Numbered from the stretch's first letter, positions 7,672-39,899 are shown. The stretch is 64,000 nucleotides of DNA from Candidatus Oxydemutatoraceae bacterium (GCA_965211995.1 OZ243040.1:1031620-1095619), one strand, 5' to 3'. A program made the numbers and translations. The notes: generated by a model from the sequence alone, not told the origin.

Positions 7672-7950
7672 TCATTCAGCAACCCTTGAGTTATTTTCAA
7701 AACTGATTCTCCAAATCCCGCAGGCCACGCTTGCCAATTTCCGTTGCCGTTGCTCGATCGTTGCGGGGGTCCATTCTGCATATCTCCCCGCGCAGTTCTT
7801 TGTTATTTGAAAACGGCTGACGGCATAAACGGGGCGCTTTTTTTCATAAGGATCGTTAGCCGCCTGTTGATTCCTTACTTCATAGAGGATGCTGTTGCCC
7901 AGCAGGGAACGCAGCGTTTTCGTTTCGGGGTTGACAATCGGCTGAGACAT
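7672..7950 (-). CDS. Small hypothetical protein (92 aa) at the edge of the low-GC island
   Basis: An ORF only, with no recognisable motif. Confidence 0.3.
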   Translation of the reverse strand: MSQPIVNPETKTLRSLLGNSILYEVRNQQAANDPYEKKRPVYAVSRFQITKNCAGRYAEWTPATIEQRQRKLASVACGIWRISFENNSRVAE

Positions 7951-11295: not shown

Positions 11296-12726
11296 ATGAC
11301 AATGAAAAAGAAAATTGCGTCAATCCTTGTGTGCCTAAGCGCCACAATGTTTGGAGTCTCAACCGCGTACGGAGACGCTTTTGAGGGACTGTCCATGATG
11401 CGCATGGGCGCCTGGGAGGTGGACTTCAGCGGTAACGTCAACGCATTCTTCACCAATGGCGAGTGCGATTCCAGTGGGAATGGTGAAACCGTTTATCATG
11501 GTCTGGCCTGCGGGTCTGACGGCAACGATAGAGATTACGGCGACGTCAGAGACGGTCTGTTGCCGTCGTGGCTGAATTTCTCGGCGGCGACGACGACCGA
11601 CAACGGCATCCGCACCGCTATCCATTTGAGTTTTCAGCCGGGCACCGATACTGACAGCGGCTTCACCGAGCCTCTGGACGGTGCGCTCGGTCTAAGCAGC
11701 GTCAACTTCCGCCAGACATTTCTGACGTTCGGCAACGACGAGTTGGGCACGTTCAAGATCGGTCGGGATCTCGGGGTTTTCGGCTCCGACGCAATCCTGA
11801 ACGACATGACGCTCCTCGGCGTCGGCTCGGGTGCTCAAGGCAGCGGACATACCACGCTTGGTCGGATCGGCATCGGCTATCTGTACGCCGACTGGAAAGC
11901 CCAGGTGCAGTACCAGACGCCGAACTTCAACGGCTTTACGGTCACTGCTGCGATCGTTGATCCTTGGGGCGTAAGCACGTGGAACGGTTATGGCCCCCCA
12001 GCACCAGCAGGCGCCGCATACAGTGCCGATGACAATGACGCCGGAGGGCAGGAACAAGACACCTACGGGTTTGAAGCCAAAGTCAACTACAATACTGAGT
12101 TTGACGGCGGTTCCCTCGGTCTGTGGGTCGGCTACATCACTCAAAGCATAGACTTTGAAAACAACCTGCAAAGCGGTTGCGTTGATGGTAACGGTGCCTT
12201 TGATAGGCTAGAAACCTCGGACAACGATGCTAACCCTGATAATGTCATACCTGCCTGTACCGTTGCTAATAACAACTTTGCAGGTGACGACAGCGCAGAT
12301 GCCGATGGCTATGACATCGGTGCGAAAATCGTGTTCGGCAACTTTGACGTCGTAGCCTATTACTACGACGGCGAAGGCATCGGCACGACTTCGTTCCTGC
12401 TCGATGCTCTCGACCCGACCGGCGAGGAGCGCGATTCCGATGGCTACTACCTGCAAGCACGCTATCGTCTGCCAATCGGCACTTTGCTCGGCGTGAGCGT
12501 CGGCGAGAGCAATCTCGAAGAAACGCCTTTGGATCAAGCGCGGCTTAGTGCTGACGCTTCCTACAACCTCGTTGAAACCAGCGAGTCGTGGATTGTCGGC
12601 GCGTATCACCCGATTGGCGAGGCGTTGAACCTGGTGGTCGAATACACCAACACCGAAGCCGAGGCGCACAACGGCAACGAAGCCGAGGAAGACAGCATCG
12701 CGATCGGCGCGATCATGTTCTTTTAA
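11296..12726 (+). CDS. Outer-membrane porin (Gram-negative beta-barrel)
   Basis: Signal peptide MKKKIASILVCLSATMFGVSTAYG, alternating amphipathic beta strands rich in G/T/N/D, and a C-terminal aromatic ...AIGAIMFF. Confidence 0.75.
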   Translation: MTMKKKIASILVCLSATMFGVSTAYGDAFEGLSMMRMGAWEVDFSGNVNAFFTNGECDSSGNGETVYHGLACGSDGNDRDYGDVRDGLLPSWLNFSAATTTDNGIRTAIHLSFQPGTDTDSGFTEPLDGALGLSSVNFRQTFLTFGNDELGTFKIGRDLGVFGSDAILNDMTLLGVGSGAQGSGHTTLGRIGIGYLYADWKAQVQYQTPNFNGFTVTAAIVDPWGVSTWNGYGPPAPAGAAYSADDNDAGGQEQDTYGFEAKVNYNTEFDGGSLGLWVGYITQSIDFENNLQSGCVDGNGAFDRLETSDNDANPDNVIPACTVANNNFAGDDSADADGYDIGAKIVFGNFDVVAYYYDGEGIGTTSFLLDALDPTGEERDSDGYYLQARYRLPIGTLLGVSVGESNLEETPLDQARLSADASYNLVETSESWIVGAYHPIGEALNLVVEYTNTEAEAHNGNEAEEDSIAIGAIMFF

Positions 12727-12750
12727 TACTCTCCGGAGTATCGCTTAGAA

Positions 12751-12790
12751 CGGCGAAAGGAGCGTGGCAACCCCACGCTCCTTTTTTTTG
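12751..12790 (+). terminator. Rho-independent terminator after the porin gene
   Basis: aggagcgtggcaaccccacgctcc is a GC-rich hairpin, followed by a run of 8 T. Confidence 0.75.
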
Positions 12791-12993
12791 AATTGATCCA
12801 AAGGGACTAACCGGCAAAACCGGGGGCAATCTTCGGGGTTGTCGTTTATCCGGCGCCGGCCCTTGCGCCCGACGCTCAGCGCAAACTTCCGCTCCGAGTC
12901 TCCTTTGCCGGTTTCGGCGAACGCCCATGCTCCTTATCAATTAAGCACCGCGCAATAGCCTGTATAATCACCGCGCACACCGGCAATACCCCT

Positions 12994-13800
12994 ATGCGAC
13001 TTTTACACTTCGCCGCCTTCCGCGCACTTTGCCTCGCGTTCGCCTTTGCCACCGCGGCGGGTGCAACGGAAACTTTGTGGGAAAGCCGCGGTGAATACGT
13101 CAAGATCGCGCCGCGCGACGGCGGCACCGCCAACCAACACCCCCTCAAGATAGACCGGCAACTGCTCGCGCAGGCTTTCTCGAAACTCAGGGTCGAACCG
13201 GGTAAAAAGCAGTCGAAAGAACTGCTCGAAAGCGGCGAGGAACCCGAAATAGCACGGCTGTTCACGCCCGCGACCGCGCACCGCATCGCGAACTACGTCG
13301 CCGACGGCCTGCGCGACGCCGGCCCCGACGACGACGTCGTGTTCCGCAGCGTGGATACCGCACCGCTGCTGGGCAAACTCCTCGGCAAGCAAGTGTTCGT
13401 CACCGGGCGCGTGTTCTGGCGCAACCGCCACCTGCACGTCATCTTCGGCAAAATCCATAAGAACATAAAGAAACGCTGGCTGCTCGGCAAGGAACAAGGC
13501 TACCTGAACGCACCCGAACCGGGCGCACGCGGCAAAGCCGCCGCGCTGAAACTGCGCATCGTCGAAGGCGCCGGCATCAGCAACGCCAAGACCCGCGATG
13601 GCAAAAAGCGCCTGGATTGGGTGATGATCGAACCGCGCGCACTCGCCCGCTCCGAACCGGCAAGCAGGCGCCCCGCACCGCCGGCACGCGACCGCTCGAC
13701 CAAAGCGCGCCTGAAACGCCTGGAGCGCCTGCGCAAGGAAGGCGTGATCACCGGGAAAGAATACAAAACCAAGCGGAAAGAGATCCTCGACGAACTCTAA
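12994..13800 (+). CDS. Secreted hypothetical protein with a C-terminal SHOCT domain
   Basis: Signal peptide MRLLHFAAFRALCLAFAFATAAGA. The C-terminus LKRLERLRKEGVITGKEYKTKRKEILDEL is a SHOCT motif. Confidence 0.55.
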   Translation: MRLLHFAAFRALCLAFAFATAAGATETLWESRGEYVKIAPRDGGTANQHPLKIDRQLLAQAFSKLRVEPGKKQSKELLESGEEPEIARLFTPATAHRIANYVADGLRDAGPDDDVVFRSVDTAPLLGKLLGKQVFVTGRVFWRNRHLHVIFGKIHKNIKKRWLLGKEQGYLNAPEPGARGKAAALKLRIVEGAGISNAKTRDGKKRLDWVMIEPRALARSEPASRRPAPPARDRSTKARLKRLERLRKEGVITGKEYKTKRKEILDEL

Positions 13801-14266
13801 AGCGTGTCACGCTTGAGCGCCTTCCGAGTTGCGCCGATGCCTTTCCGAATTATTTTCTTAGGTGTCAATAGATTACGACTGCCATAGAAAAAATGTTGAA
13901 ATAGCGGAATCCCCACTTCAAGGATCACAATGAAACCCTTTTCAAGAGGAATGCTCTCTTTATGGCATCCCAGAGAATTGTCGCTGATCACCGATCCCGA
14001 GGAGATGCAAAGGGAGGTTTGGCAAGCGGTAGGAGACGCCCTGCGGTTCGCCATGAACACTTATGAGGCAACGGAAGAATATCAAGCCGCGGTTGACGCC
14101 GCCGGCCAAAGTCGTTCAGCCACGCCCAGTACTTCCACAAGGAAAGCGCAAGTCGTCGTACAAGAAGAACGTAGCGGCCCCCTGCCCGCGCCGGTAGATC
14201 CCCAGCCAAATACAATGCCAAATACAATGTGAAGTAGTCCCCGGTGCCGGGAATCGCATTATCAGC

Positions 14267-14689: not shown

Positions 14690-15311
14690 GACACCGGTTT
14701 AGACTGAGGCCTCCTGCTGTTCATACACGGTGGGCGGCGTGTAATTGACTCCGCATCGGTGTCGGGAAAGTTCGGCGCGCGCACCTGCTGTTCATACACG
14801 GTGGCGGCGTGTAATTGACGGCGGAATGCCGGCGCCGCTGATTATAAAAGACCTCGATCTACTCGAACACCGAAGTCCTTGCCTGCTCGCGGGTTGCATA
14901 GCGTTCAGAGTGCACCAGCTCCCGCTTCAGGGTGGCGAAGAAACTCTCCATCACCGCATTGTCGTGGCAGTTGCCGCGGCGCGACATCGAACAGGTGATG
15001 CCGTTGGACTCAAGCAGCCACCGATAGTCGTGCGAGGCATACTGACTGCCGCGGTCGGAGTGCAGCAGCAGTCCCTCGACTTTGCCGCGCCGCCACAGCG
15101 CCATCCTCAAGGCTTCGCCCGCCAGTTGCCGCGTCATGCGCTTCGCCATCGCCCGGCCCACCACCGCCCGTGAATACAACTCGAGCACCACGGCCAGTGA
15201 CTTTCCCCCGCTTCGACGGACACCGGCTGAGACTGAATCCCCCCGGCGCCGGGTCGGCGGTGCCGGACTTCCGCTACATCCGCCGCAAGCGGAACAACCC
15301 TTCCAGAACAC
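14690..15311 (-). mobile_element. IS3-family insertion-sequence remnant (OrfB integrase-core fragment with an in-frame TAG; duplicated end sequences)
   Basis: ORF 14859..15311 carries LLHSDRGSQYAS...GITCSMSRRGNCHDNAVMESFFATLKRELVHSERYATREQARTSVFE, then a TAG where the family has Tyr, then IEVFYNQRRRHSA. The N-terminal half is absent. The end-like sequence acggacaccggtttagactga(g/a) recurs at 14690 and 15222, and cctgctgttcatacacggtgg(g)cggcgtgtaattgac recurs twice at 14719-14757 and 14782-14819. Confidence 0.6.
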
Positions 15312-16482
15312 CGCCGTCGCTGGTGAAATACAGCGCGCCGTCAGGCCCGAACGCGACGCCGACAGGCCGCGCGAGGCGCTCGCCCGCGGCGTCCTGAAAG
15401 CCCTCGATCAGGGCCACGACGTCGCCGGCCCTGTCGCCGTTGAAGCGCACCAGCGCAACCCACGGCGGTCGGCGGGTGGCTCTCTCGCCGAAGAAGCCCC
15501 CGTGCGGGCGCGTCGCCCATGAACCGTGCAGTGCGACGGCCGCGTCGCCGGCTTTCACAACCCCCTGAACGCCCCCCTGATCACGCGTTGCAAACGCCAC
15601 GCCCATCGGCCCGTTACGCGCCGGAAACGTCGCGACGGGTGCGGCGGCGTCTTCACGCGGCGGCGTCCCGCCGATGCAGTGGTCACGCTTGATCTCGCGC
15701 CCGTCAAACCAGAACCACGGCATCCCGTGAAACGAGCCTGCTTCCAGGCGCGCGAAATACTCGGGCGGCTGCGCATAGCCGTGATGGTCGGGGCCATGAT
15801 TGCTTGCGTACAACACCCCGCTGCGCGGATGCCAGTCGAAGCCGATCGGGTTGCGCAGACCCGCGGCGTAGGGCTTCCAATACGGCTCCCTGCCTTTTTC
15901 GACCAACACAAACACCCCGCCGCGCCGGTCCTGAAAACGATAACCGTCGTCTAAATACTGATCGCTGCAGTTGCCGCTGATGCCGAGGCTCGCGTAAATC
16001 CGCCGGTCCGGCCCGACGCCGATGCTGCGGCTCGAGTGCCCGCCGCCCGGCGGCAACGCCGCGACCCGCGTGAAGTCGCCGTCTTTGAGAGCACCTTTGG
16101 GAGGGTCGCCCGGACGGTACGGCGCGCGATAAACGCCGTCGTTCTTTGCGACGAACAAGACACCGCTGCGCAACGCAACACCGTGCGGGAAATTGCTGAG
16201 CTCGGCATAGACCGACACGCGCGTATAAGGCGGCTCAATGCGATAGACGCGCCCCGCGTTCGAGCCGGCGAGCAACGCGCCGGTGCCGTCAAACACCATA
16301 AGCCGGGGGCCTTTCATCTCGGCGAGACGTTCGAGCACGTAACCCGCCGGCAGTTTCAACCGCCAAGTCTTGCCGCCGACTTCAAAAGGCTGCTCGGAAT
16401 ACTCAAAGGCCGCGGCGGGCGCGGCGGCGATCACCGCCGCTGCGATGACCGTTCCGAAAACTCTCGACTGCCTCGTGTTCAT
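15274..16482 (-). CDS. PQQ-dependent sugar dehydrogenase (soluble glucose/L-sorbosone dehydrogenase family, beta-propeller)
   Basis: Signal peptide MNTRQSRVFGTVIAAAVIAAAPAAA. Family motifs are present (...NHGPDHHGYAQPPEY..., RNPIGFDWHP). 402 aa. Confidence 0.7.
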   Translation of the reverse strand: MNTRQSRVFGTVIAAAVIAAAPAAAFEYSEQPFEVGGKTWRLKLPAGYVLERLAEMKGPRLMVFDGTGALLAGSNAGRVYRIEPPYTRVSVYAELSNFPHGVALRSGVLFVAKNDGVYRAPYRPGDPPKGALKDGDFTRVAALPPGGGHSSRSIGVGPDRRIYASLGISGNCSDQYLDDGYRFQDRRGGVFVLVEKGREPYWKPYAAGLRNPIGFDWHPRSGVLYASNHGPDHHGYAQPPEYFARLEAGSFHGMPWFWFDGREIKRDHCIGGTPPREDAAAPVATFPARNGPMGVAFATRDQGGVQGVVKAGDAAVALHGSWATRPHGGFFGERATRRPPWVALVRFNGDRAGDVVALIEGFQDAAGERLARPVGVAFGPDGALYFTSDGGVLEGLFRLRRM

Positions 16483-16945
16483 TGCGACGACTTAAAGACA
16501 CTTGATGCCGTCAAAATTATTTCCTTTGAGCAAAGCGCGTTCATCGCGGCACCTCAAAGCAGCGGCGGCGGCGCGTCTGCCGGCCTCAACCCCCCCGCTT
16601 GCGAATACAGTTTAACGGCAATCGCCTCGATTACGCGGGCGAGCGCGTCTTCAATGCCCCCCTCAAGTTGATTGTGCCCGACGCCGTTGACCGCCGCTGC
16701 GATGACCGCCCCGAAAACTTTCGACTGCCTCGTGTTCATCGCGACGACTTAAAGACACTCGATGCCGTCAAAATTATTCCCTTTGAGCAAGCGCGTTCAT
16801 TGCAGCCCCTCAAAGCAACGGCGGCGGCGCGCCTGCCAGCCTCAAACCCCCGCCTGCGAATACAGTTTAACGGCAATCGCCTCGATCACGCGGGCGAGCG
16901 CGTCTTCGATGCCCCTTTCGTGTTGATTGTGCCCGGCGCCGTTGA
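16436..16945. repeat. Roughly 255-bp tandem duplication (2 copies, about 92% identity) of the pip 3' end, the intergenic spacer and the gsdh 5' end
   Basis: The units begin accgccgctgcgatgaccg(t/c)(t/c)ccgaaaact at 16436 and 16691. Copy 1 creates the chimeric ORF 16554..16739 (MNTRQSKVFGAVIAAAV joined to the pip C-terminus GIEDALARVIEAIAVKLYSQAG). Confidence 0.75.
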
Positions 16946-17804
16946 CTATGGTCACCGAACCCTGCGGCCAACGCTGCGCCAGGGCGTAGGCCGACAGCGG
17001 CGGGCACAGCAGGTCGTAGCGCGCTTGCACGATTCCCCCCGGCACATCGCGCAGCCGGCCGGCCTCAGCGAGCAATTGCCCGGGCCGCAAAAAGCAGCCG
17101 TGCGAAAAATAATGCGCCTCCATGCGCGGCGTCGAAGGCCGCGGCCTGTCGTCCGCTGCACGTGCGCTGGCGGCGAGGTCGGGCAAGTCCGGACATAATT
17201 CCGACAACGCACGCTCGTAATCGTGCCATACGTAACTTGCGGGCAGCGACACCGCCGGGTCGTCATCCAGAATACGCCGGTAATACGCCGCGAGCGGCGC
17301 CGGCCTTTCGGCTTCGGGGAGATAAGCGATGAACGCCGCGTACAACTCAGGGTAGATCATCCGCGGCAGCGTGATGAACGCACACTGCAACTCGTCTGCG
17401 CCGCCGAGGAACAGCGAGCGCACGGCGATGCCGGTGGTGCGCTCGGGATGGGCTTCGGCGTAAGCAATCGCGAGCAGCGCACCCCACGAACCGCCGACCA
17501 CGAGCCAGCGTTCAATGCCGAAACGCTCGCGCACCGTCTCGAGGTCGGCGATCAAATCCTGCGTGGTATTGCTCTCGAGGCAGCCCTTCGGCGTGCTGTC
17601 GCCGGCGCCGCGCTGATCGGGCGCGATGATGCGGAAATAGCGCAGATCAAACAGGTCCCACAGCGAGGAATGGCAGCCGCTGCCCGGTCCGCCGTGCAGA
17701 AACACAACGGGGATGCCGTCGGCGTCGCCGTATTCCTTGACCGACAGCGTATGCGGAGGGGCGACGGCGATCTCGTGCCGGTCAACGGGTTCAACTTCCG
17801 GCAT
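16842..17804 (-). CDS. pip: Prolyl aminopeptidase (proline iminopeptidase, S33 alpha/beta hydrolase)
   Basis: MPEVEPVDRHEIAV...VVFLHGGPGSGCH and WLVVGGSWGALLAIAYAEAHPERT (the GGSWG nucleophile elbow). Start chosen at Met 17804; the track ORF extends to 17873. Confidence 0.85.
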   Translation of the reverse strand: MPEVEPVDRHEIAVAPPHTLSVKEYGDADGIPVVFLHGGPGSGCHSSLWDLFDLRYFRIIAPDQRGAGDSTPKGCLESNTTQDLIADLETVRERFGIERWLVVGGSWGALLAIAYAEAHPERTTGIAVRSLFLGGADELQCAFITLPRMIYPELYAAFIAYLPEAERPAPLAAYYRRILDDDPAVSLPASYVWHDYERALSELCPDLPDLAASARAADDRPRPSTPRMEAHYFSHGCFLRPGQLLAEAGRLRDVPGGIVQARYDLLCPPLSAYALAQRWPQGSVTIVNGAGHNQHERGIEDALARVIEAIAVKLYSQAGV

Positions 17805-18912
17805 GGACGACCTTGACCGGCACTTTGAAGCCGATGCGCCGGTAATCGAATCTTTCGTCCCGCCGGTCCGCATCGAGCATCGCGATATTCACGAGCCGCT
17901 CGTGATGGTCGGAGAACTCGCACGCCGGATCCATGTTGGCGGCGTCGCCGGTGATCGCGAACGCCTGGCAACGGCAGCCGCCCCAGTCTATTTCACGGCG
18001 CTCGCAGCCGCGGCACGTCTCGGGCATCCAATCGGTGCCGCGGTATTTCTCGAACGCTGTCGAATGTTGCCAGATATCCTTAAGGCTGCGCTCCTTGAGA
18101 TTGTCGAACTCAAGCGCGGTGATGCTTTCGGCCGCGTGGCACGGCAGCACCTTGCCCGACGGCGTCACGTTCAGGAACTGCCGCGCCCAGCCGCCCATGC
18201 AGGCTTTCGGGCGCCGCGCGTAGTAGTCGGGCACGACGTAGTCAATCACCAGTATGCCCTTGAGGCGCTCGCGTGCCTTCTCGACGACCCCGGTCGCCCA
18301 TTCGAGTTGATCGCGCTTCGGCATCAGCGCCGCGCGGTTGTGATACGCCCAGCCGTAATACTGCACGTGCGCGACTTCAAGACGCGAGGCGCCCATCTCG
18401 ACCGCGAGGTCAATGAGGGACTCGAGGTGGTGGAGGTTCATCTTGTGCACCGGCGCGTTGACGGTCAGCGGCAGGCCGTTGGCTTTGACCGCTTTCGCGA
18501 CCCTGAGCTTTTGCGCGAAACCGTCGTGGTAGCCGCCGATGCGGTTGGCGCTGTCCTCCTCGCTGTCCTGGATGCTGATCTGCACGTGGTCGAGGCCGAG
18601 TTCGGCGAACCGCGCCATGCGCGCGTCATCAATCAGCACCGCCGAGGTGATGAGGTTGGAATACAGTTTGAGTCTGCGGGCGGCGGCGATCAACTCCTCA
18701 AGGTCCTTGCGCACCGCCGGTTCGCCGCCGGAAAAGTGCACCTGCAAGACCCCCATCGCGACGGCCTGCTCGAACGCGTCTATCCATTGCTCGGTGTTGA
18801 GTTCACCGGACGAGCGCTCGAGTTCCATCGGGTTCGAGCAGTACGGACACCGCAAGGGGCAGCGGTGCGTCAATTCGCACAGCATGGACACCGGCATACC
18901 GACGCCGCTCAT
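17791..18912 (-). CDS. pqqE: PQQ biosynthesis radical-SAM protein PqqE
   Basis: MSGVGMPVSMLCELTHRCPLRCPYCSNP is the radical-SAM CxxxCxxC motif, followed by a SPASM Cys-rich C-terminus. About 373 aa from Met 18912. Confidence 0.85.
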   Translation of the reverse strand: MSGVGMPVSMLCELTHRCPLRCPYCSNPMELERSSGELNTEQWIDAFEQAVAMGVLQVHFSGGEPAVRKDLEELIAAARRLKLYSNLITSAVLIDDARMARFAELGLDHVQISIQDSEEDSANRIGGYHDGFAQKLRVAKAVKANGLPLTVNAPVHKMNLHHLESLIDLAVEMGASRLEVAHVQYYGWAYHNRAALMPKRDQLEWATGVVEKARERLKGILVIDYVVPDYYARRPKACMGGWARQFLNVTPSGKVLPCHAAESITALEFDNLKERSLKDIWQHSTAFEKYRGTDWMPETCRGCERREIDWGGCRCQAFAITGDAANMDPACEFSDHHERLVNIAMLDADRRDERFDYRRIGFKVPVKVVHAGS

Positions 18913-19440
18913 GTCCGTAAAAACCCCTTGTCGGCCAAGTCTTGAAACATCGCGGTCATGTCCTTCAATCTCCGCTCCGCGGGCGCGTTGTTGGTCGCGC
19001 TGAGTGTGGCCGGGCGAGGCGGCCATTGCAAGTTTGGATCAGCATCGTTGCACCCATCAGCAAACGCGCTGAATATGGCCGGGCGAGGCGGCCATTGCAA
19101 AAGACGGCGGTGCGTCAATTCACACAGCCCGGACACCGGCAGGCCGACGCCGCTCATGTCCGTAAAAACCCCTTGTCGGCCAGGTCTTGAAACATCGCGG
19201 TCATGTCCTTCAATCTCCGCTCCGCGGGCGCGTTGTTGGTCGCGCTGAGTGTGACCGGGCGAGGCGGCCATTGCAAGTTTGGATCAGCATCGTTGCACCC
19301 ATCAGCAAACGCGCTGAATATGGCCGGGCGACGCGGCCATTGCAAAAGACGGCGGTGCGTCAATTCGCACAGCCCGGACACCGGCAGGCCGACGTCGCTC
19401 ATGTCCGTAAAAACCCCTTGTCGGCCAGGTCTTGAAGCAT
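18900..19440. repeat. 245-bp tandem repeat, about 3 copies, duplicating the pqqD 3' end and pqqE 5' end junction
   Basis: Track ORFs 18909..19271, 19154..19534, 18942..19190 and 19187..19435 are offset by exactly 245 nt. Each copy encodes ...KDMTAMFQDLADKGFLRT (stop) then MSGVGLPVSGLCELTHRRLLQWPPRPA.... There is a nested 24-nt sub-repeat tgcaatggccgcctcgcccggcca. Confidence 0.8.
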
Positions 19441-19671
19441 CGCGGTTATGTCCTTCAATATCTGCTCCGCGGGCGCGTTGTAGGCCGCGCTGAGCTTGGC
19501 GGAAATATCTTTCACCGTTGTGCGCCCGTCGCATAGTTTCAGGGTGTCAAGCGCCGGGGCGTCGGGCTCAAGCAAACGCTCCGGCGCGAGCAGCACCCAG
19601 CGCCCGCGCGTCTCGTCGTGGTGCAGTCTGACGTGGTCGGGCAGAAATGGCATCGAGCCTGCCGACACCAT
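19399..19671 (-). CDS. pqqD: PQQ biosynthesis protein PqqD
   Basis: RWVLLAPERLLEPDAPALDTLKLCDGRTTVKDISAKLSAAYNAPAEQILKDITAMLQDLADKGFL. The start is uncertain; candidates are the Met at 19671 or 19653, and the track ORF extends to 19749. Confidence 0.75.
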   Translation of the reverse strand: MVSAGSMPFLPDHVRLHHDETRGRWVLLAPERLLEPDAPALDTLKLCDGRTTVKDISAKLSAAYNAPAEQILKDITAMLQDLADKGFLRT

Positions 19672-19732
19672 GCAGCGCGCACGGTCGCCGCTTGGGGCGC
19701 CGTTTTGACCGCCGTTCTGAGCGGTCGCCGGG

Positions 19733-20476
19733 TTATTCATCGGACACAAAGCAGCCGGGCGGCGTCAGCCCCGGCTCGACGTAGGCAAAATGCAGCGCGT
19801 CCAACTGGCTCCACAGCACGTCGCACTTAAAGCTCAACGCATTCAGTGCGCTTTCCTGCTGCTCGGCGGTGCGCGCATTGTCGAGCACGTATTGCAGCGC
19901 AAAGTCCACGTCGCGGCGCGCCTGCGTCAGCCGCGGCTTGAAATACGCGAGCAGTTCCTCGGTGATGAAGTCGTAATTGGCAAGCATCCCGGCCATGCGC
20001 TCGGCGATGATCACCGGTGAGAAGATCTCGGTCAGCGACGACGCAACCGCGTCGAGCAACGGCGCCTCGGAAACGAAATGAACGTAGGCGTCCGCCGCAA
20101 AGCGCGCAGCCGGCAGCACGCCGTCCTGCGAGACCACGTAGGCGCGGTCGAGGCCGAGACCGTCGGTCAACTTAAGCCAGCGCTCGATGCCGCCCTTGCC
20201 CGGTTCGTCGCCGTCGTGATCGGCGATGCGCCGGCGCCACTCGCGCCTCAGGTCGTGGTCGGGAATGCGCGCCATCAGCCGCGCGTCCTTGACCGGGATC
20301 GCCGCCTGGTAGCAATAGCGGTTCAGCGCCCATGCCCGCACCTGCCCCTTGTTCAACTTGCCGGTGTGCAGCAAGCGGTGAAACGGGTGTTTGTCGTGAT
20401 AGCGCTCCTCGCCAATCCTGCGCAGGCGCCGTTCGAGTTGCTCGGCGCTCACCGGCCGGTCAAGTTGGATTTTCAT
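19733..20476 (-). CDS. pqqC: Pyrroloquinoline-quinone synthase PqqC
   Basis: 247 aa with the HDKHPFHRLLHTGKLNKGQVRAWALNRYCYQAAIP family signature. Confidence 0.85.
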   Translation of the reverse strand: MKIQLDRPVSAEQLERRLRRIGEERYHDKHPFHRLLHTGKLNKGQVRAWALNRYCYQAAIPVKDARLMARIPDHDLRREWRRRIADHDGDEPGKGGIERWLKLTDGLGLDRAYVVSQDGVLPAARFAADAYVHFVSEAPLLDAVASSLTEIFSPVIIAERMAGMLANYDFITEELLAYFKPRLTQARRDVDFALQYVLDNARTAEQQESALNALSFKCDVLWSQLDALHFAYVEPGLTPPGCFVSDE

Positions 20477-21402
20477 AAGTCAATGACCTGCCCGTCGTAC
20501 GACACCCGCCACCCCGCGTCCTCGACGATCCTGCGCTCGGGCGAGTCCTCGAGCAGCACCGGGTTGGTGTTGTTGACGTGGATATAGACCTTGCGCCCGA
20601 CCGCGACGTCGCGAAAGGCCGCGAGCGAACCGCCCTCGCCGTTCATGCTCATATGCCCCATCCTCGCGCCGGTCTTGTGGCCGACGCCGGCGGTGATCAT
20701 CTCGTCGTCGCGGAACAAAGTGCCGTCAAAAAGCACCAGGTCGGCACCGTCGAGACGCCGCTTCAGATCATCGGGCAAGTCGGCGCAGCCGGGGATGTAA
20801 TAGAACACGGCGTCTTGATGCAGGCTGCGGATGCGCAGGCCGACCGTGTCGCCTTCGCGGGTGCCGAAATCCGCCCCCCGGCTTGCGTCTTCCATGAACA
20901 GCGCAACCTTGCCGGGTACCGCGAAAGGCTCGATCTCGAGGCCGAGCGGCGCACCCGCGGCGTCGGCGACTTCAAACGGCGACGACAGCACAAAGGTGTC
21001 GCGCTTGACGTATTCGGGATTGAGCACGTTGAAAATCGAATTGTTCGCGAGGATTGACCGCACCCGGTCCGAGGTGTAGAGCCGGAAAGGCTCACTCTCG
21101 CGCATCGTCAGCAGCCCGGCGATATGGTCCACGTCACCGTTGGTCAGCACCACGGCCTTGATCGGGCTGCTTCTGAGGCCTTCGCGGGGATGCAGTTGCT
21201 CGGTTTGGTTGATCTGCTGGCGCAGGTCGGGCGAGCAGTTTAAGAGAACGAAGTTTTTACCGTCTGCGGTGACGGCAACGGAAGATTGGGTTCTTGAAAA
21301 AGCCCGAACACTGCCGCCCCTCGCGAGACGACAGTGTTCAGTATTACAGTTCCACTGGGGGAAACCTCCTCCGGCTGCTGCGCCCAGAACGATGATCCGC
21401 AT
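20473..21402 (-). CDS. pqqB: PQQ biosynthesis protein PqqB (metallo-beta-lactamase fold)
   Basis: MRIIVLGAAAGGGFPQWNCN...NGDVDHIAGLL, 309 aa. ATGA overlap with pqqC. Confidence 0.85.
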   Translation of the reverse strand: MRIIVLGAAAGGGFPQWNCNTEHCRLARGGSVRAFSRTQSSVAVTADGKNFVLLNCSPDLRQQINQTEQLHPREGLRSSPIKAVVLTNGDVDHIAGLLTMRESEPFRLYTSDRVRSILANNSIFNVLNPEYVKRDTFVLSSPFEVADAAGAPLGLEIEPFAVPGKVALFMEDASRGADFGTREGDTVGLRIRSLHQDAVFYYIPGCADLPDDLKRRLDGADLVLFDGTLFRDDEMITAGVGHKTGARMGHMSMNGEGGSLAAFRDVAVGRKVYIHVNNTNPVLLEDSPERRIVEDAGWRVSYDGQVIDL

Positions 21403-21460
21403 GGTTACGTTTCACTGTCTGACCGCCGGCTTTGGAGACGGAAAACCCCCTATCTGACGA

Positions 21461-21544
21461 TTAGGAAATTTCCGCGCATGCGTAGCAGTTGATTTCCATG
21501 CCAACTGCGGTTTCCTTAATCGAAGGTGCTTTCCATAATTTCAT
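21461..21544 (-). CDS. pqqA: PQQ precursor peptide PqqA (27 aa)
   Basis: My translation of the minus strand gives MKLWKAPSIKETAVGMEINCYACAEIS, with the E-x-x-x-Y pair (EINCY) that is crosslinked in PQQ. There is a ggagga RBS 7 nt upstream. It lies immediately upstream of pqqB and is not in the ORF track because it is under 60 aa. Confidence 0.7.
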   Translation of the reverse strand: MKLWKAPSIKETAVGMEINCYACAEIS

Positions 21545-21865
21545 GGTTAGTCCTCCATATTACGTTGTTAGCTAACAATCCCCGGAGATTGCCGACGCTT
21601 CAACAGCGCCTTCTCTCACCGAGCACGGCATTATATCTTTTGGGAGGGGAAAGACTCAAGCGGAATCTATGCTGATTTTGAATACATGGTATGGCGAAAT
21701 CCGATAAAATCCGCATCAAACCGCCAAAAATCGCCCTTCGGAGAGGTGTTCATCCCGAGGCGCTCCGGCAGAACCGTTCACGTCGCTCTCTGCGTGGTTG
21801 CATTGGCCTTGCGTAAGGTGGTCGTCCTGAGACGCCTCGGCAGGGGCAACGGGGCGCGCGGGCTA

Positions 21866-22349: not shown

Positions 22350-23639
22350 CTATTCTTTCGGCTCCGCCGGTTCGAGGCGGTTAAAAACCATGCGCACGGA
22401 TTCCAGCGGCTCGGCGTCGGTCTCTTCCCCCACGATCAGTGTCGAGATGCTGTAGATGTATCCGGGGATGGATGCGCTCAGTATAAATTCGTAGAGTTTG
22501 CCTGTATAGCCCTGATACCTCTTGTCGTCGCCCCTGCCCGCCAGCGGCCGCATAAACACCTTGCGCGCTTTCAGTTTGCGCCCGCCGCGGGTCACGGTCA
22601 CTTCTTCGCTGTGTGTGCCGGTGCGAAACGCCTGCCGCAGTAGATGGCGGAAGTGATGGTGCGTGACGCGGCGACCGCCGCTCATTTTCTCCACGTCCCA
22701 TTGCAGGAAATACATGATCGCCGGATTGGAGTGGAAGTTTGTGATGTCGGCGAACGGCCTTTTGTTGACGCCGCTCAAAAACTCGACGCTTAAATTTTTA
22801 GCCCCGTCTTCGGCGACCCGGGTGATCTCGAGCGTCACCTGGTCTTCGATCTCGCGGGCGTGCGATCCCGCTTGGCGAAAATCGTAATGCAGCACGGACT
22901 CGGAAGCCACGTTCTCGAGGTGGGGAGTGTCGAACAGCAGCCGCTGCTCTTTGGTGTATTCATCATCAGCGCCGGGGGCGGCTTTAGGCGCGGTGTCCGC
23001 AACGGCGGCGCGCACGCCATCGGCGGCGGCGGTTTGAGGCGCCCGCGGAATCTCTCTGAATTCAGGCATCTTCACCGGGTCGCTGAGCTCAAGCGGATAG
23101 CCCATCAACTCCCACTCGTCGGTGCCGCCCGGAAACCAATAAACGTTACGGTAACCCAGCGCGATCGCTCTTTTAGCGGAGTTCCACGACATCCAGCAGT
23201 CAATCAGGCAGTAAAACACGAGCGGGCGTTGTTTGTTCCGCGCCGTCAGCCGCTCGAGGTTCTCGTTCAGGTATTCCTCAAACACCGGCGAGATGTCGCC
23301 GTCGCCGACGTTCGGCAACCATGCGCTGCCTGGGATATTGCGCCGCGGCGGCGTCCGCCACAAGTTCCCGGGCGGAAAGTCCGGCGGCTTGCGCATCAGC
23401 GGCAGCACGTCGATCAGCGCGGGTTCGCGTTCAAGCAAAACGTGCAACTGCCGGGCATTGACCACGGTCGCGCCGCGCAGGGTCGCGGGCGTCGGCGTGC
23501 GGTATTCGTCCATGCGGTAGCCTTCCGGCTCTGCGACGAAATCGGCGGCGGCGGCAACGCGCGCGCACGCCATCCACGCGAGCGCACACAGCAGCGCCAA
23601 TGTATATCGGTATCCGGCTGCGCGTCCCACCGCGTTCAT
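22350..23639 (-). CDS. Periplasmic rhodanese-domain protein resembling the PQQ-dependent-catabolism-associated CxxCW-motif family
   Basis: Signal peptide MNAVGRAAGYRYTLALLCALAWMACARVAAAADF. Rhodanese-like segment PLVFYCLIDCWMSWNSAKRAIALGYRNVYWFPGGTDEWE. The C-terminal roughly 250 aa are unassigned. I chose the start at Met 23639 because the 75 aa upstream of it in the track ORF look non-coding. Confidence 0.5.
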   Translation of the reverse strand: MNAVGRAAGYRYTLALLCALAWMACARVAAAADFVAEPEGYRMDEYRTPTPATLRGATVVNARQLHVLLEREPALIDVLPLMRKPPDFPPGNLWRTPPRRNIPGSAWLPNVGDGDISPVFEEYLNENLERLTARNKQRPLVFYCLIDCWMSWNSAKRAIALGYRNVYWFPGGTDEWELMGYPLELSDPVKMPEFREIPRAPQTAAADGVRAAVADTAPKAAPGADDEYTKEQRLLFDTPHLENVASESVLHYDFRQAGSHAREIEDQVTLEITRVAEDGAKNLSVEFLSGVNKRPFADITNFHSNPAIMYFLQWDVEKMSGGRRVTHHHFRHLLRQAFRTGTHSEEVTVTRGGRKLKARKVFMRPLAGRGDDKRYQGYTGKLYEFILSASIPGYIYSISTLIVGEETDAEPLESVRMVFNRLEPAEPKE

Positions 23640-24559
23640 TGTTCCACCAAAGGCACGTTGTACTCGGCCAGAATCGCGTTTATTTTCTCCTGATTCTTGC
23701 GGATCAACTTGTTCAATTCGCGCTTCCATTGTATTTCGCCGCTCCTGACTCCCATCGTGATCCGAAACACCATGCGGTGTTCGTCGCTGTTGTCGGCGGC
23801 CATCGGCACGACTTTGAAGCGCGAGCCGTTGCGCCGGTTCAGCCAGCCCGCGACCGGCCCCCACAAAACGGCGACGTCGAGATTGCCGGCGAGCACGTCC
23901 TTGAGGATCCGCTCCGAGGGCAACTCCGTGCCGGTATTCGTCACCGGCCGGTACGACACCATCTGCGTAATCAGGCCGTTCTCAAGCAGCAGCCCCGTCG
24001 GCGGCGCGCCCCCGATCAGGCCGATGCGCAGTTCGCGGTCTTTCAGCACCTTGTCGGACAGCGAAGCCAACTCGAAATCGGCGTCGGCGCGATACACCAA
24101 TGCAAACGCCGAAGAGTAATACGGATTGGTGTTCAAAAGCAGTTCGTGAGCCGCCGATATGCCGACGATCAAGTCGCAGCGCCTGGCGTTCAGCGTATCG
24201 CGCACGAACCTCGGGCCGAGGCTTTGGGAAAACCACGCGTAGGTCAGCGGAATACCGAGTTCGGCGGCGACCAACTCGGCGATCTTGTTCTCGAAACCTT
24301 CGCCGGCACGGTTGGAGTAAGGCAGATTGTCCGGGGCGCTGCACACGAGCAGCGTGGCGCGCCCTTTGATTTCAGTGCCGCCGTCAACCGCGCGTGCCTC
24401 AACGGCGGTGAACAACGCCGCCCCGGCAAACGCCGCGGCGAAAACCGCGGCCGCGGCCGCGCCCGCGACGACCCGCAAAAAAAAGCGGCCGGGCGGATTC
24501 AAGTTCGCAGTACGGCGTTGGCCCGTCATTCTTTTATGCCTATCCGCTTCATCTGCGGA
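23636..24559 (-). CDS. xoxJ: MxaJ/XoxJ periplasmic binding protein of the methanol-oxidation system
   Basis: LLVCSAPDNLPYSNRAGEGFENKIAELVAAELGIPLTYAWF...RCDLIVGISA...LDVAVLWGPVAGW is the MoxJ family signature. Start inferred at Met 24559. Confidence 0.75.
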   Translation of the reverse strand, partial: SADEADRHKRMTGQRRTANLNPPGRFFLRVVAGAAAAAVFAAAFAGAALFTAVEARAVDGGTEIKGRATLLVCSAPDNLPYSNRAGEGFENKIAELVAAELGIPLTYAWFSQSLGPRFVRDTLNARRCDLIVGISAAHELLLNTNPYYSSAFALVYRADADFELASLSDKVLKDRELRIGLIGGAPPTGLLLENGLITQMVSYRPVTNTGTELPSERILKDVLAGNLDVAVLWGPVAGWLNRRNGSRFKVVPMAADNSDEHRMVFRITMGVRSGEIQWKRELNKLIRKNQEKINAILAEYNVPLVEQ

Positions 24560-24760
24560 TTTATTCTTAACTGCATCAATCTGCGGATTGATCTTTTGGC
24601 CCCACAAACTGCGCGGATCGCCGCAGACGCCAAGCCGTCCTGTTTGAGCCTCAGGCGAGGCCGCAAAGCGCCCGCCCCTCTTTCTTCTGTCGCACTCCGG
24701 GCTGGAATCCGCCCTGCGGCTTTTCGTCACTTGTCGGCCCCGGCGATGACCCAACCGCAC
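24545..24760. repeat. Dispersed repeat family 2 (catctgcggatttat... tgtttgagcctcaggcga.gccgc ...gcactccgg.ctg.aa), copy A
   Basis: About 75% of its positions match 52925-53080. It shares the gcactccggactgaaag-type end with the MITE family. Confidence 0.5.
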
Positions 24761-24792
24761 TGAGCAATATGCAAAAACGGCGCTTGGAAAAC

Positions 24793-25293
24793 TCAGCTGC
24801 CCAAACAGACGTCGTCGCGCTCTTTCGCCGCCGCCGGCTTGGGCTGCTTGTTCGCCGGACGGTTGGTGCCGAGCACGCCGTCGGCCCTGGCGACGAGGTA
24901 GGCGTAGATGTCATCCACGAAACACATCACGTTGGGGTCCGTCGCGAAAGAAGGCATGCTGCTTTGCGCGGTCGTGCTCATGGTGGTAAGCCCGTTGACC
25001 ACTACTTCGAAGTATCTCTCGTAAGTCAGCCCTTTCTTATTGAAAGCATCGAGCAGACTCGGGGCGAATGAACCGCCGAGGCCCGCCGGGCCGTGGCAGG
25101 TGTGGCAGACCGCGTGATAGCGGCGATAGCCGTTGAACGTGTACCAGTCAATCCTGCTTTCCGCGTCCAGGTTGTACGGCTTGTCTTCGGCCACGGCGTC
25201 GGACGCCGGAAAAGAAATCAAAAGCACGCCCGCCAACAGCGCGAAAAACGCTCCGGTCAGGCGGCGGCCGGTCACCGTTTGCTTAACTTGCAT
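24793..25293 (-). CDS. xoxG: Cytochrome cL (MxaG/XoxG), electron acceptor of methanol dehydrogenase
   Basis: A single haem site CHTCHG, a signal peptide, and about 166 aa. Confidence 0.75.
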   Translation of the reverse strand: MQVKQTVTGRRLTGAFFALLAGVLLISFPASDAVAEDKPYNLDAESRIDWYTFNGYRRYHAVCHTCHGPAGLGGSFAPSLLDAFNKKGLTYERYFEVVVNGLTTMSTTAQSSMPSFATDPNVMCFVDDIYAYLVARADGVLGTNRPANKQPKPAAAKERDDVCLGS

Positions 25294-25418
25294 CCGCGTA
25301 TCCATTTTTTTAAAGCCTTATAACAATCAAAAAATCGTCGTTAAAAAAATACCCGGGGGTTGCACTAGGTGCGCCCCCGGGTACCGGATAAAAACGTTCT
25401 CTTTCTAAACGTCTGCGA

Positions 25419-27218
25419 TTAAAGAGAGAACACAGTCAGAGCACCGCCGAGGCGGGTGTAGTCCGAAAGACGGCGATAGCCGCCCACGGCACCGAGACCG
25501 TCAGTGTCATTTGTCAGACCCGCGGCCATGCCGATGCCGGCCCAACCACCGACGCCCGACAGGATGGCAATATATTGCTTGCCCTTATGCTCGTAGGTCG
25601 TGACGTTGCCGATGATGCCCGACGGGGTTTTGAACTTGTACAGCTCTTTCCCGCTCTTGGCGTCAACCGCTTTGAGATAGCCTTCCAGCGTGCCGTAGAA
25701 AACGACACCGCCCGCCGTCGCAAGCGCGCCGCTCCAAACCGAGAATCTCTCGGGCTTGGACCAGACGATCTTGCCTTTGCTGGCGTCCCAGGCGATGAAG
25801 TTGCCCATGTGATCGCCGCCCGGGGCGGGATACATTTTCAGCGTGGCGCCGACGTACAACTGACCCACCGTGTAACTCACCCGATGCGGCTCGTAGTCCA
25901 TGCACACGTGATTCGTGGGCACGTAGAACAAACCGGTCTGAGGCGAGAAAGAAGCGGGCTGCTGGTCTTTGGTTCCCAGAGCGGCGGGGCAGATGCCCGT
26001 GGTATTCACGTCTTCACCCTGGTGACCCGTGCTGTACCTGTCCACCACCTGCGGACGACCCGTCTTCATGTCAACGTGGGTAGCCCAGTTGACCGCGGGA
26101 TCGAATTTTTCCGCGACCAGCAATTCGCCCGACTCGCGGTCCAGCGTGTAGCCGAAACCGTTGCGGTCGAAGTGCACCAGCGCTTTGCGCGTTCTCCCGT
26201 TGACCTCAATATCGGCCAGGATCATCTCGTTGATGCCGTCATAGTCCCACTCGTCGTGAGGCGTCATCTGATAAACCCATTTGGTATGGCCGGTGTCGGG
26301 GTCGCGCGCAAAAATGGTCATTGACCATTTGTTGTCGCCCGGACGCTGAACCGGATTCCACGTGCTCGGATTACCCGAGCCGTAATAAATCAAATTCAGT
26401 TCGGGGTCGTATGAAAACCAACCCCAGGTCGTGCCGCCGCCGATTTTCCATTGGTCGCCTTTCCAGGTTTTGACACCGGAATCGGTACCGACGGATTGGC
26501 CGAGATGGGTGGTCTTCGCACTCATCAGGGTGTCCGAATCGGGACCCATCGAGTAGCCGCGCCACACTCGCTTGCCGCTCTTGATGTCGTACGCGGTCAA
26601 ACTGCCGCGGACGCCGTACTCGCCGCCGCTGATGCCGACGTAGATCTTGTCGTTGACGACCATCGGCGCCGCGGTTCCGGTTTCGGCCTTGCTGACGTCA
26701 CCGTTGGTGGCGCTCCACTCGACCTTGCCGCTCTTGGCGTTCAGAGCGACCAGTTTGGTGTTGGCCTGGTACAGGAAAACCTTGCCGTCGGCGTAAGCCA
26801 ACCCGCGGTTGACGGTGTCGCAGCACAAAACCCCGACCCCGTACTCGTGCTCGAGCACTTCGGGCTGTGACGGCACGTATTCCCAAACGATCCTCGCGTC
26901 CTCGTCCAAATCGAGCGCGAACACCTTGTTCGGAAAAGGCGTGTGCACGTACATCATGCTGCCGATGATCAACGGGCCGCCTTCGTGGCCACGAAGAACT
27001 CCCGTCGAGAAAGACCAGGCAACGTTCAAGTCATTGACGTTGCCGGCGTTGATTTGATCGAGTTCAGAGTAACGGTGATTGGCGTAATTACCGGTAGGCA
27101 TCACCCACTGCTTAGCATCGTGTTGCAACTTCAGCAGTTCACTGTTTGCCTGCGCGACGGACGCCGCACCGAAACTCAGAACTATGGCGATCAGAAGAAA
27201 TTTCGTCGATATCTTCAT
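25419..27218 (-). CDS. xoxF: PQQ-dependent methanol dehydrogenase large subunit, lanthanide (XoxF) type
   Basis: 599 aa, signal peptide, the vicinal disulfide [10 protein letters not shown], and the tryptophan-docking propeller. It has DEWDYDG (Asp-x-Asp after the catalytic Asp, i.e. the lanthanide ligand). There is no mxaI small-subunit gene, and the gene order is F-G-J. Confidence 0.8.
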
Positions 27219-27536
27219 GATCGACTACCCTCCTTTATTTAAATAAAGATTCAGGCCGCTGTACCTGCAAAAACAAGGCCAAACCGCCCGAAGCCGGAAG
27301 AGAATAACACATTTTGGATATTCCTTACGGAATACGCCCGATTAGACAACCCCCGGACAGTTCCGGCCAGAATAGCCCGTACAAAAGCGTTTTTAATAGA
27401 TTATTCCGGTCTCAACGATTCCCGGCCGCCCCGTGCCCCAAGCCTCCCAATGGAGCCGGCAGCCCTGATTCTGTGAAAATGTCCCATTCTTCGTATGATA
27501 GTGCTGCAAACCGCACAGCCGGAGGCGCCAGCCCTC

Positions 27537-29231
27537 ATGCCGGATAAACCAAGCCAGCCGAGCGACATCGAAATCGCCGCGCAAGCGAAAATGCGCCGCA
27601 TCTCGGACGTCGCCGCAGAAAAACTCGGGATCGACGCCGGCGTCCTCGAACTCTTCGGCCACCACAAAGCCAAAATCCCTCTCGACTTCATCGCCTCGCT
27701 GAACGAGCGCCCGACGGGCAAGCTGATCCTGGTCACCGCGACGCACCCGACGCCGCGCGGCGAAGGCAAAACCACGACCACGATCGGCCTCGGCGACGCA
27801 CTCAATCGCATCGGCAAAAAAACGATTATGTGCATCCGCGAGCCGTCGCTGGGCCCGTGCTTCGGGATCAAGGGCGGCGCGGCCGGCGGCGGGTACGCGC
27901 AAGTCGTGCCGATGGAGGACATCAACCTGCACTTCACCGGCGATCTGCACGCGGTTTCCCTCACGCACAACCTGCTCGCGGCCCTGATCGACAATCATAT
28001 CCACCACGGCAACGCGCTCGGGCTCGACCCGCGGCGCACCAGTTGGAAACGGGTGGTTGACCTCAACGACCGCTCGCTGAGAAAAATCGTCGTCGGCCTC
28101 GGCGGCACCGTCAACGGCTACCTGCGCGAAGACGGCTTCGACATCGTCACCGCCTCCGAAGTGATGGCGATCCTGTGCCTGTCGTCGTCGCTTGCGGAGC
28201 TCAAGCGCCGCCTCGGCAGCATCGTCATCGGCTACAACTACGCGGGCGAGATGGTGCGCGCCGCCGACCTCAAGGCGCACGGCTCGATGGCCGCGCTGCT
28301 CAAGGACACGCTCAAGCCCAACCTCGTGCAGACGCTGGAGAACAACCCAACGCTGGTGCACGGCGGCCCGTTTGCGAACATCGCCCACGGCTGCAACTCG
28401 ATCATCGCGACCAAGTGCGCGCTCAAACTCGCCGACTACGTGATCACCGAAGCGGGCTTTGGCGCCGACCTCGGCGCCGAGAAGTTCTTTGATATCAAGT
28501 GCCGCAAGGCCGGCCTCGCACCCTCGCTCGCCGTCATCGTCACCACGGTGCGCGCGTTGCAGTACCACGGACATCACCACCCGCGACGCCGGGAAGCCGA
28601 CACGCTCAAAACGCTCGAAAAAGGCATCGCCAACCTCGAACGCCACATAGACAACATCCGCAACTGCTTCCAACTGCCGTGCCTGGTCGCGATCAACCGC
28701 TTCAGCGAAGACCGCGACGAGGAATTGGCCTTGATCATCGAAAAAGCGGCGGCGCACGGCGCCGAAGCGGTGATCGCCGACCACTGGGCCGGCGGCGGCG
28801 CCGGCGCCGAAGATCTCGCCCGCGCGGTGGTTGACGCGACCGCCGGCGAACCGCCGCCGCTGCAATTCGCCTACGATGAAAGAGACACCCTGTGGCAGAA
28901 AATCGAAAAAATCGCCAAGAAGATCTACGGTGCCGGCGAAGTGATCGCGGACATGAAAATACGCAACCGCATCCACTACTATCAGGAAAACGGCTACGGC
29001 CACTTCCCCGTCTGCATCGCCAAAACCCAGTACTCTTTCTCTACCGACCCGCAACTGCGGGGCGCGCCGTCCCGGCACATCGTGCGCCTCAACGACATCT
29101 CGCTGTCGGCGGGCGCCGAATTCTTCGTCGTCGGCTGCGGGCATATCCAAACCATGCCCGGTTTGCCCAGGGAGCCGGCGGCCAACTTCATAGACGTTGA
29201 CAAAGACGGCAAGATCAGCGGGCTGTTCTGA
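27537..29231 (+). CDS. fhs: Formate--tetrahydrofolate ligase
   Basis: [41 protein letters not shown], about 564 aa. Start chosen at [17 protein letters not shown]; the track ORF starts 14 codons earlier. Confidence 0.9.
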
Positions 29232-39640: not shown

Positions 39641-39680
39641 TCCATATACGGCGCGAGCGCTTCAGGCAGACGCCAATTTC

Positions 39681-39830: not shown

Positions 39831-39899
39831 CCGGCGGCGCACGCGGCCTTGTTGCCGATCTTAAGGCTTCAATTGGCGGATGCCGCCCGTTGCAATGCG

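Follow-up and report, generated by a model that had tools for sequence, protein, structure and literature searches.

A probably neutral tandem array of pqqD/pqqE junction copies in the PQQ operon of a gammaproteobacterium related to sponge symbionts

The stretch of DNA analysed here (the window) comprises 64,000 nt of a Candidatus (Ca.) Oxydemutatoraceae bacterium (GCA_965211995.1 OZ243040.1:1031620-1095619) and contains a pyrroloquinoline quinone (PQQ) operon, pqqABCDE, on the minus strand between 17791 and 21544. At the point where pqqD and pqqE would be expected to overlap, the operon is interrupted by an array of 245-bp tandem units (2.6 copies; 18862-19500, minus strand), and each unit carries a copy of the end of pqqD and of the beginning of pqqE. 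The array is real and turns a known operon into a structural variant that is probably neutral; the main interest of the array lies in its being a marker of a lineage-wide tendency to tandem duplications that span gene junctions. The host is a small-genome gammaproteobacterium near the sponge-symbiont group Ca. Oxydemutatoraceae.

The genes of the operon were identified by the cut-offs of NCBIfam equivalog profiles, with Pfam in agreement. The 27-aa precursor PqqA (MKLWKAPSIKETAVGMEINCYACAEIS; 21461-21544, minus) scores 32.3 bits against TIGR02107 (cut-off 20) and 29.8 bits against PF08042 (cut-off 21.1), carries its Glu-x3-Tyr pair as E17-x3-Y21, and is preceded by a GGAGGA motif 6 nt upstream of the ATG. 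The remaining four proteins, all encoded on the same strand, exceed their cut-offs over approximately the full profile length: PqqB (20473-21402; TIGR02108, 395.6 bits, cut-off 245, profile positions 1-297 of 298), PqqC (19733-20476; TIGR02111, 378.3 bits, cut-off 240), the intact, 113-aa PqqD (19399-19740; TIGR03859, 67.8 bits, cut-off 46, profile positions 1-80 of 81) and the intact, 373-aa PqqE (17791-18912; TIGR02109, 561.7 bits, cut-off 381). PqqE, a radical-SAM/SPASM enzyme with PF04055 and PF13186 domains, is 89% identical, end to end and free of gaps, to its counterpart in the closest relative that could be retrieved. Its CxxxCxxC motif reads CPLRCPYC and is present in the real copy only, not in the partial copies (decoys) of the array. 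A first-pass annotation of the window had proposed a complete operon together with a PqqA precursor that bears the Glu-x3-Tyr pair and a ribosome-binding site; both proposals are borne out, the latter also by the family alignment of the precursor. The genes are co-directional and follow the order A-B-C-D-E, while tight packing of pqqD and pqqE is missing. A prolyl-aminopeptidase-like hydrolase gene, pip (16842-17804, minus; TIGR01249, 265 bits), overlaps the end of pqqE by 14 nt. Judged by its sequence, the locus is a standard pqqABCDE operon plus a peptidase gene and should be functional.

Tandem Repeats Finder (TRF), a repeat search, self-BLAST and the unit sequences all bear on the array. 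TRF reports a period of 245 with 2.6 copies at 18862-19494 (95% matches, score 1161), and the repeat finder places copies at 18844-19088, 19089-19333 (94% identity) and 19334-19578 (67%), the last figure being low because the far half of that copy is the genuine pqqD body. The motif ACATGAGCG, in which the stop codon of pqqD overlaps an ATG, occurs three times, with ATGs at 19402, 19157 and 18912, and only the third junction copy (18912) leads into the genuine pqqE. Each unit combines 98 nt from the end of pqqD, 51 nt (17 codons) from the beginning of pqqE and 96 nt of filler, so that local copies of the two gene ends make up 149 of its 245 nt. At the protein level every copy reads ...NAPAE..LKD..AM.QDLADKGFLRT, followed by a stop, and then MS(D/G)VG.PVS.LCELTHR. 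The distance from the pqqD stop to the real pqqE ATG is 486 nt, or 490 nt (2 x 245) if the overlap is counted. The triplicated junction with some 490 bp of 245-bp repeats, as first described, is thus confirmed by TRF, the repeat search and self-BLAST alike; the units do re-encode the PqqD C-terminus, and the PqqE portion amounts to 17 codons instead of the approximately 20 that had been suggested. The array spans a junction in the strict sense, as its units pair the upstream gene's 3' end with the downstream gene's 5' end and both genes are left intact. The flanks do not account for the unit as a whole, since 96 nt per unit have no significant match there.

This filler has an internal structure of its own. 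In unit 2 (18996-19100, minus) a 36-nt direct repeat (19065-19100 and 18996-19031) encloses a 33-nt insert (19032-19064), and unit 1 shows the same arrangement at 19241-19345. Without one 36-nt copy and the insert the unit would measure 176 nt; both 176 and 245 are of the form 3n+2, and the additional 69 nt of the form 3n. Two motifs of the non-genic part were found only within the array, with none expected, which is far above chance. An ungapped continuation of the filler past pqqE codon 17 matches at 15 of 27 positions, with all three Cys codons changed, and an origin from the pqqE continuation is suggestive only. Part of the insert resembles another gene: 28 of its 33 nt (19032-19064 and 19277-19309) agree at 25 of 28 positions with the yidC gene of a relative (L085, 15051-15078). 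This patch encodes the conserved LLMGATML, which the YidC protein of the window genome also contains. Of 300 shuffled fillers, 26 do just as well, and a yidC-templated insertion is therefore only a lead. An origin of the filler from a dispersed element was rejected, as no further copy was found in the window or in approximately 1 Mb of related loci.

Searches for further functions of the array gave negative results. Apart from a tRNA, the window has no Rfam hit, and the array matches no Rfam family; the fold of the unit is not unusually stable (z = +0.6 against shuffles); and a consensus promoter scan found no internal promoter in the unit. A diversity-generating retroelement was also considered and rejected: the differences between repeats are G>A, T>A, A>G, T>G and C>T, without adenine bias, and no reverse transcriptase occurs among the annotated neighbouring genes.

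The extra junction copies retain the start context of pqqE. Given a unit length of 3n+2, the copied pqqE ATG opens an open reading frame (ORF) that closes at the next copied pqqD TGA, which yields two decoy ORFs of 82 aa each on the minus strand. Decoy ORF 1 (19154-19402) comprises PqqE residues 1-17, filler and approximately the last 30 PqqD residues, and decoy ORF 2 (18909-19157) ends with a TGA that overlaps the real pqqE ATG. The TGA of pqqD itself overlaps the first decoy ATG, so that ATGA overlaps at 19399-19402, 19154-19157 and 18909-18912 form a chain from pqqD through both decoys to pqqE. As pqqE lacks a good Shine-Dalgarno sequence at normal spacing (an AAGGGG lies 11 nt 5' of its ATG), it is probably translated by way of the ATGA overlap. 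Ribosomes could plausibly be relayed from pqqD to pqqE via the decoys, whose translation would follow from the arrangement of their reading frames. Such ATGA-chained decoys could hand ribosomes on to pqqE, and the harm to its expression would therefore be limited. The decoy starts of the first-pass annotation are real, as the retained start context shows, whereas the junction is not simply uncoupled as it envisaged, because the chain leaves a relay possible. In practical terms, a 411-codon ORF in the pqqE frame (17791-19026) opens at an ATG inside the repeat, and annotation may consequently give pqqE a false 38-residue N-terminal extension; gene callers may also list the chimeric decoy fragments as genes.

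The same features invite the idea of an adaptive regulatory spacer, in which selection would have favoured the decoy starts and the added distance as a means of reducing or adjusting PqqE against PqqD, or of uncoupling the two genes. In its favour are the probable dependence of pqqE on the ATGA overlap and the fact that coupling efficiency drops quickly with the distance between stop and start, and with each re-initiation step (reviewed in PMC12548453). Both rearrangement steps moreover kept the relay frame, as 176 nt equals 3n+2 and 69 nt equals 3n. The history of the locus speaks against this idea. The nearest relatives of PqqE and PqqC come from metagenome-assembled genomes (MAGs) that carry the label Ca. 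Oxydemutatoraceae or "uncultured Chromatiales"; Ca. Porisulfidus, a name that appears in a paper on a sponge-associated metagenome, comes next. When the locus was compared in close relatives, as had been recommended at the outset, the array was missing in all six, Oxydemutatoraceae-like MAGs of sponge symbionts (L001, L002, L003, L081, L084 and L086), which show a plain ATGA overlap of pqqD and pqqE and no repeat. The array is therefore lineage-specific.

The copies themselves allow a relative dating. A 12-nt deletion in the N-terminal part of pqqE is common to all three copies and is not found in the relatives, and the duplication thus postdates the split from the closest relative; as a scale, the divergence of the window from its nearest relative at four-fold sites is 17.5%. 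The decoys differ from the real gene ends by approximately 7%, and from each other at 5 of 245 nt (2%), which points to two duplication steps. Over the 149 positions that can be compared, both decoys share 10 differences from the real gene ends. Nine of these are nonsynonymous and derived in the decoys, with the real copies keeping the state of the relatives; the remaining one is synonymous, and its direction is ambiguous. The decoys are decaying, and this build-up of nonsynonymous changes is again difficult to reconcile with a selected spacer.

It also bears on whether the two 82-aa chimeric ORFs could be functional small proteins, for instance PqqD-tail peptides that modulate PqqE. Both ORFs are open, have the pqqE start context and retain approximately the last 30 PqqD residues, which speaks for such a function. 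Set against this, they match no family in NCBIfam or Pfam, and their exact sequences were not found in a collection of 15 billion proteins. Nonsynonymous changes affect residues that are conserved in the relatives, the differences between decoy 1 and decoy 2 (three nonsynonymous, two synonymous) give no sign of constraint, and the fragment presumably spans only the tail of the PqqD fold. We regard a protein function of the decoys as extremely improbable.

The junction of pqqD and pqqE is not the only one of its kind. Local tandem duplications were counted if they reached 60 bp and 80% identity and had an offset of at most 1.5 kb. The window holds 10 such events in 64 kb (15.6 per 100 kb), as compared with one event in 767 kb (0.13 per 100 kb) at 76 control pqq loci of other Proteobacteria, which include complete genomes and long-read MAGs. 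Oxydemutatoraceae-like relatives show seven events in 137 kb (5.1 per 100 kb), and two loci of Ca. Porisulfidus seven in 33 kb (21 per 100 kb). The density is accordingly 40- to 160-fold above that of the control loci, and for the window itself some 100-fold. None of the 10 window events falls inside a gene body on a crude gene map based on GC content at third codon positions (GC3). By a rough estimate, a random segment of 100-350 bp would lie wholly inside a gene approximately 70% of the time, and the exclusive position of the events outside gene bodies therefore indicates filtering by selection.

Several of these events resemble the pqqD/pqqE array. Just downstream of pqqE, the 3' end of pip, the spacer and the first ~50 nt of a glucose/sorbosone-dehydrogenase (GSDH)-like gene are present twice in a unit of ~257 bp (16419-16946, minus); the microhomology at the joint is an imperfect match over ~16 nt, and a chimeric ORF (16554-16739) fuses the N-terminus of the downstream gene in frame to the pip C-terminus. 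Between parC and htpX, five copies of 129 bp with 96% identity (53993-54640) consist of ~65 nt from the parC end and ~64 nt from the htpX start, and each carries the GGAGGA and ATG of htpX and a 34-codon decoy ORF. At the ATGA junction between the parE 3' end and the 5' end of a haloacid dehalogenase (HAD)-type hydrolase gene, 178 nt are duplicated (57964-58500), with a miniature inverted-repeat transposable element (MITE) located exactly between the copies. Here a 120-codon ORF (58087-58449) opens at the copied start, crosses the entire MITE and closes at a copied stop that overlaps the real start. The other window duplications lie at gene ends or between genes (34601-34828, 39136-39588, 39610-39966, 41273-41996, 50039-50186 and 52626-52873) and include the 3' ends of a cytochrome c gene and of serS, the divergent region between serS and a Na+-H+ exchanger gene, and the 3' ends of an ankyrin-repeat gene (157 bp, 2.8 copies) and of a radical-SAM gene (103 bp, 2.4 copies). 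Copies in the window have diverged by 2-15%. Among the relatives, L085 has a duplicated pqqE/pip junction of 295 bp with 99% identity (12173-12771), L004 carries three copies of its pqqE/pip junction (6010-6775) and three of a 124-bp unit between pip and the next gene (7443-7833), and L089, a Ca. Porisulfidus locus, has six copies of 209 bp at the mnmE 3' end (12971-14222) and two of 247 bp at the gidA 3' end (16038-16543). The duplications of L085 and L004 affect other junctions of the pqq operon and arose independently of the window array. Gene callers have listed some of the duplicated fragments of the relatives as small genes.

These data also bear on the possibility that an assembler falsely expanded a single junction, which is suggested by the fact that the array is known from one assembly of the species. 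Artefactual copies would be identical, whereas the observed ones differ by 2% between decoys and by ~7% between decoys and real gene ends, with a distribution that is coherent in evolutionary terms, and 96 nt of every unit do not occur in the flanks. Ten like structures exist in the window and more in independently assembled relatives, while long-read MAG controls of other bacteria (e.g., L063 and L073) show none. An assembly artefact consequently appears very improbable indeed.

With the other sites at hand, the idea of a regulatory spacer can be weighed as a whole. Like structures occur at many unrelated junctions of the window and of the relatives, which is not expected of a device specific to pqqE. 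Relay-compatible frames were found in four of six comparable events, against one in three expected (P about 0.10): the relay fits the parE/HAD junction and the pqqE/pip junction of L085, and it does not fit parC/htpX or L004. The excess is not significant, and selection for unit lengths that permit a relay was accordingly not adopted as an explanation. All told, we consider an adaptive spacer unlikely. The first-pass proposal that the array might alter the PqqD:PqqE stoichiometry fares no better as a PQQ-specific device, given the absence of the array in six relatives, the decay of the decoys and the duplication of nine other sites in the window. A role in PqqD:PqqE dosage would be possible but is unsupported.

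Another source to be considered is a dispersed intercistronic repeat that inserted at the pqqE start, similar to a MITE or to mycobacterial interspersed repetitive units (MIRUs). MIRUs likewise insert at start codons and contain an internal ORF coupled at -4 nt (PMC12548453), and the window does possess a MITE family, one copy of which is the element between the parE/HAD junction copies. Yet 149 of the 245 nt of the pqq unit are the local ends of pqqD and pqqE, the filler motifs are absent from the rest of the window and from ~1 Mb of related loci, and the filler is unrelated to the MITE family. An inserted repeat of this type is therefore very unlikely.

The MITE-like element measures ~170 bp, occurs in both orientations and has the terminal inverted repeats TTCCAGTCCGAAGTGCGGC. 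Copies lie at 39674-39836, 43218-43350, 56848-57026, 58155-58329 and 62993-63176, with short forms near 1907, 21865 and 43113, one of which is located just 5' of the pqqA promoter region. Two copies are part of open frames that run into a downstream gene, namely an N-terminal extension of parC and the ORF 61473-63317. MITE insertion with very long target duplications was examined as a general cause of the tandem copies and rejected; the parE/HAD site fits, and the serS-end site has the MITE inside the decoy copy and a short duplication only.

Taken together, we consider it likely that the array arose by neutral junction-spanning duplication and was later amplified and fixed in a duplication-prone lineage. 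A short tandem duplication would first have occurred with its ends in the 3' end of pqqD and the 5' end of pqqE. Since such an event leaves one intact copy of each gene, it would have been nearly neutral and could become fixed. The decoy segment between pqqD and pqqE would then have decayed and gained the 69-nt addition by a secondary insertion plus duplication, and a much later re-duplication would have turned two junction copies into three. Replication slippage or template switching at weak microhomology probably gave rise to the copies, with unequal recombination to follow, and the lineage appears to generate or retain such duplications at a very high rate. The array looks like tolerated mutational debris rather than PQQ-specific control.

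A number of points weigh against neutral duplication as a full account. A simple duplication leaves the 96-nt filler unaccounted for, and local alignments of the filler with the rest of pqqD and pqqE are no better than those of shuffles. In the pqqE-derived part, identity falls sharply from ~90% to ~55% after codon 17, which uniform neutral decay does not predict. The copy number comes from the single assembly mentioned above, and the gene map behind the absence of events from gene bodies is the crude GC3-based one, with Pfam support for some genes only. The frames of the four relay-compatible events could hint at selection beyond plain tolerance. Finally, neutrality is a property that we infer, and the same is true of the mutational mechanism of the duplications.

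A broader reading would place the array within an undescribed genome-wide regime of sponge-symbiont Gammaproteobacteria (Ca. Oxydemutatoraceae-like bacteria and Ca. Porisulfidus), in which boundary-straddling duplications of 60-360 bp occur at 40-160 times the usual density and are kept preferentially when relay ORFs preserve coupling and avoid polarity. We put this forward tentatively and think it less likely than not to hold in full. A literature search of limited reach found no description of junction-spanning duplications in sponge symbionts. If the reading were true, such lineages would possess self-made counterparts of MIRUs, which would continually supply chimeric micro-ORFs and put distance between genes that once overlapped.

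The surroundings of the array contain further features of the operon and of its host. A promoter-like site lies 5' of pqqA (21630-21659, minus), with TTGAGT, an 18-nt spacer and TATAAT (10 of 12 consensus matches, a pattern match alone). A stem-loop of 17 pairs followed by a T-run (21304-21341, minus) is situated within the first ~30 codons of pqqB and could attenuate read-through from pqqA to pqqB. A pip-like alpha/beta hydrolase gene stands directly 3' of pqqE in every relative examined, and the overlap of the pip and pqqE ends was seen in the window, L004, L081, L084, L085 and L086. In this clade, at whose loci neither pqqF nor pqqG was seen, the prolyl-aminopeptidase-like gene is a candidate for a peptidase of the PQQ pathway. 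It is followed by the GSDH-like gene of PQQ type (15274-16482, minus; PF07995), which encodes a signal peptide and occurs in the same order in L081. Two genes for PQQ-dependent dehydrogenases (25419-27218 and 35383-37128), like the GSDH-like gene, indirectly suggest that PQQ has clients in the organism; within 22350-27218, one of them is adjoined by genes for a cytochrome c and a rhodanese-domain protein in the same order as in the relatives, and a formate-tetrahydrofolate ligase gene is located at 27495-29231. The window further encodes an ankyrin-repeat protein (38302-39165) and a 1781-aa protein (43753-49098) with He_PIG/PKD Ig-like repeats and internal DNA repeats. Both protein types are frequent in reports on sponge symbionts.

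The consequences for PQQ biology are small, as the operon is intact and PQQ-dependent dehydrogenases are encoded. The pattern shows that overlapping, coupled genes can become separated without the loss of either, and how decoy ORFs with ready-made starts and stops arise. It further points to an unusual balance of duplication and deletion in some host-associated lineages, which could perhaps be traced to their replication and repair genes.

Canonical pqq operons include pqqABCDEF of Klebsiella pneumoniae and pqqABC/DE of Methylorubrum extorquens. The window operon shares with the canonical pqqABCDE the same five genes in the same order, the Glu-x3-Tyr pair of PqqA, and the CxxxCxxC motif and SPASM domain of PqqE. 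It differs in the separation of pqqD and pqqE by 486 nt, with two decoys derived from their own gene ends, and in the absence of a pqqF/G-type protease gene, in place of which the prolyl-aminopeptidase-like gene overlaps the end of pqqE.

Tandem repeats between the genes of Ehrlichia ruminantium offer a second comparison. Collins and colleagues in 2005 and Frutos and colleagues in 2006 reportedly described units of ~150 bp there, with truncated gene fragments beside intact genes. In this small, host-associated genome, tandem repeats between genes undergo active expansion and contraction (PMC10710844). The genome-wide picture is similar in the two organisms, which differ in lineage at the level of the phylum and in lifestyle. 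MIRUs are similar in architecture: the window array resembles them in its intercistronic tandem units, its co-directional genes and an internal ORF set in 4-nt overlaps. In MIRUs, a stop/start overlap of 4 nt couples this ORF to the gene that follows, an arrangement presumed to keep the influence on expression to a minimum (PMC12548453). MIRUs nevertheless form one dispersed and apparently mobile family, whereas the units of the window are local and have their own sequence at each locus. Because the pqq unit is not dispersed, neither in the window nor in ~1 Mb of related loci, the array is not a member of a MIRU-like family. Ordinary variable number tandem repeats (VNTRs) and slippage duplications share with it the head-to-tail copies, the little or no microhomology at the joints and the later amplification. 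What sets the present duplications apart from these ordinary VNTRs is their density, 40- to 160-fold above the control loci, and the keeping of copies until they have diverged by 2-15%.

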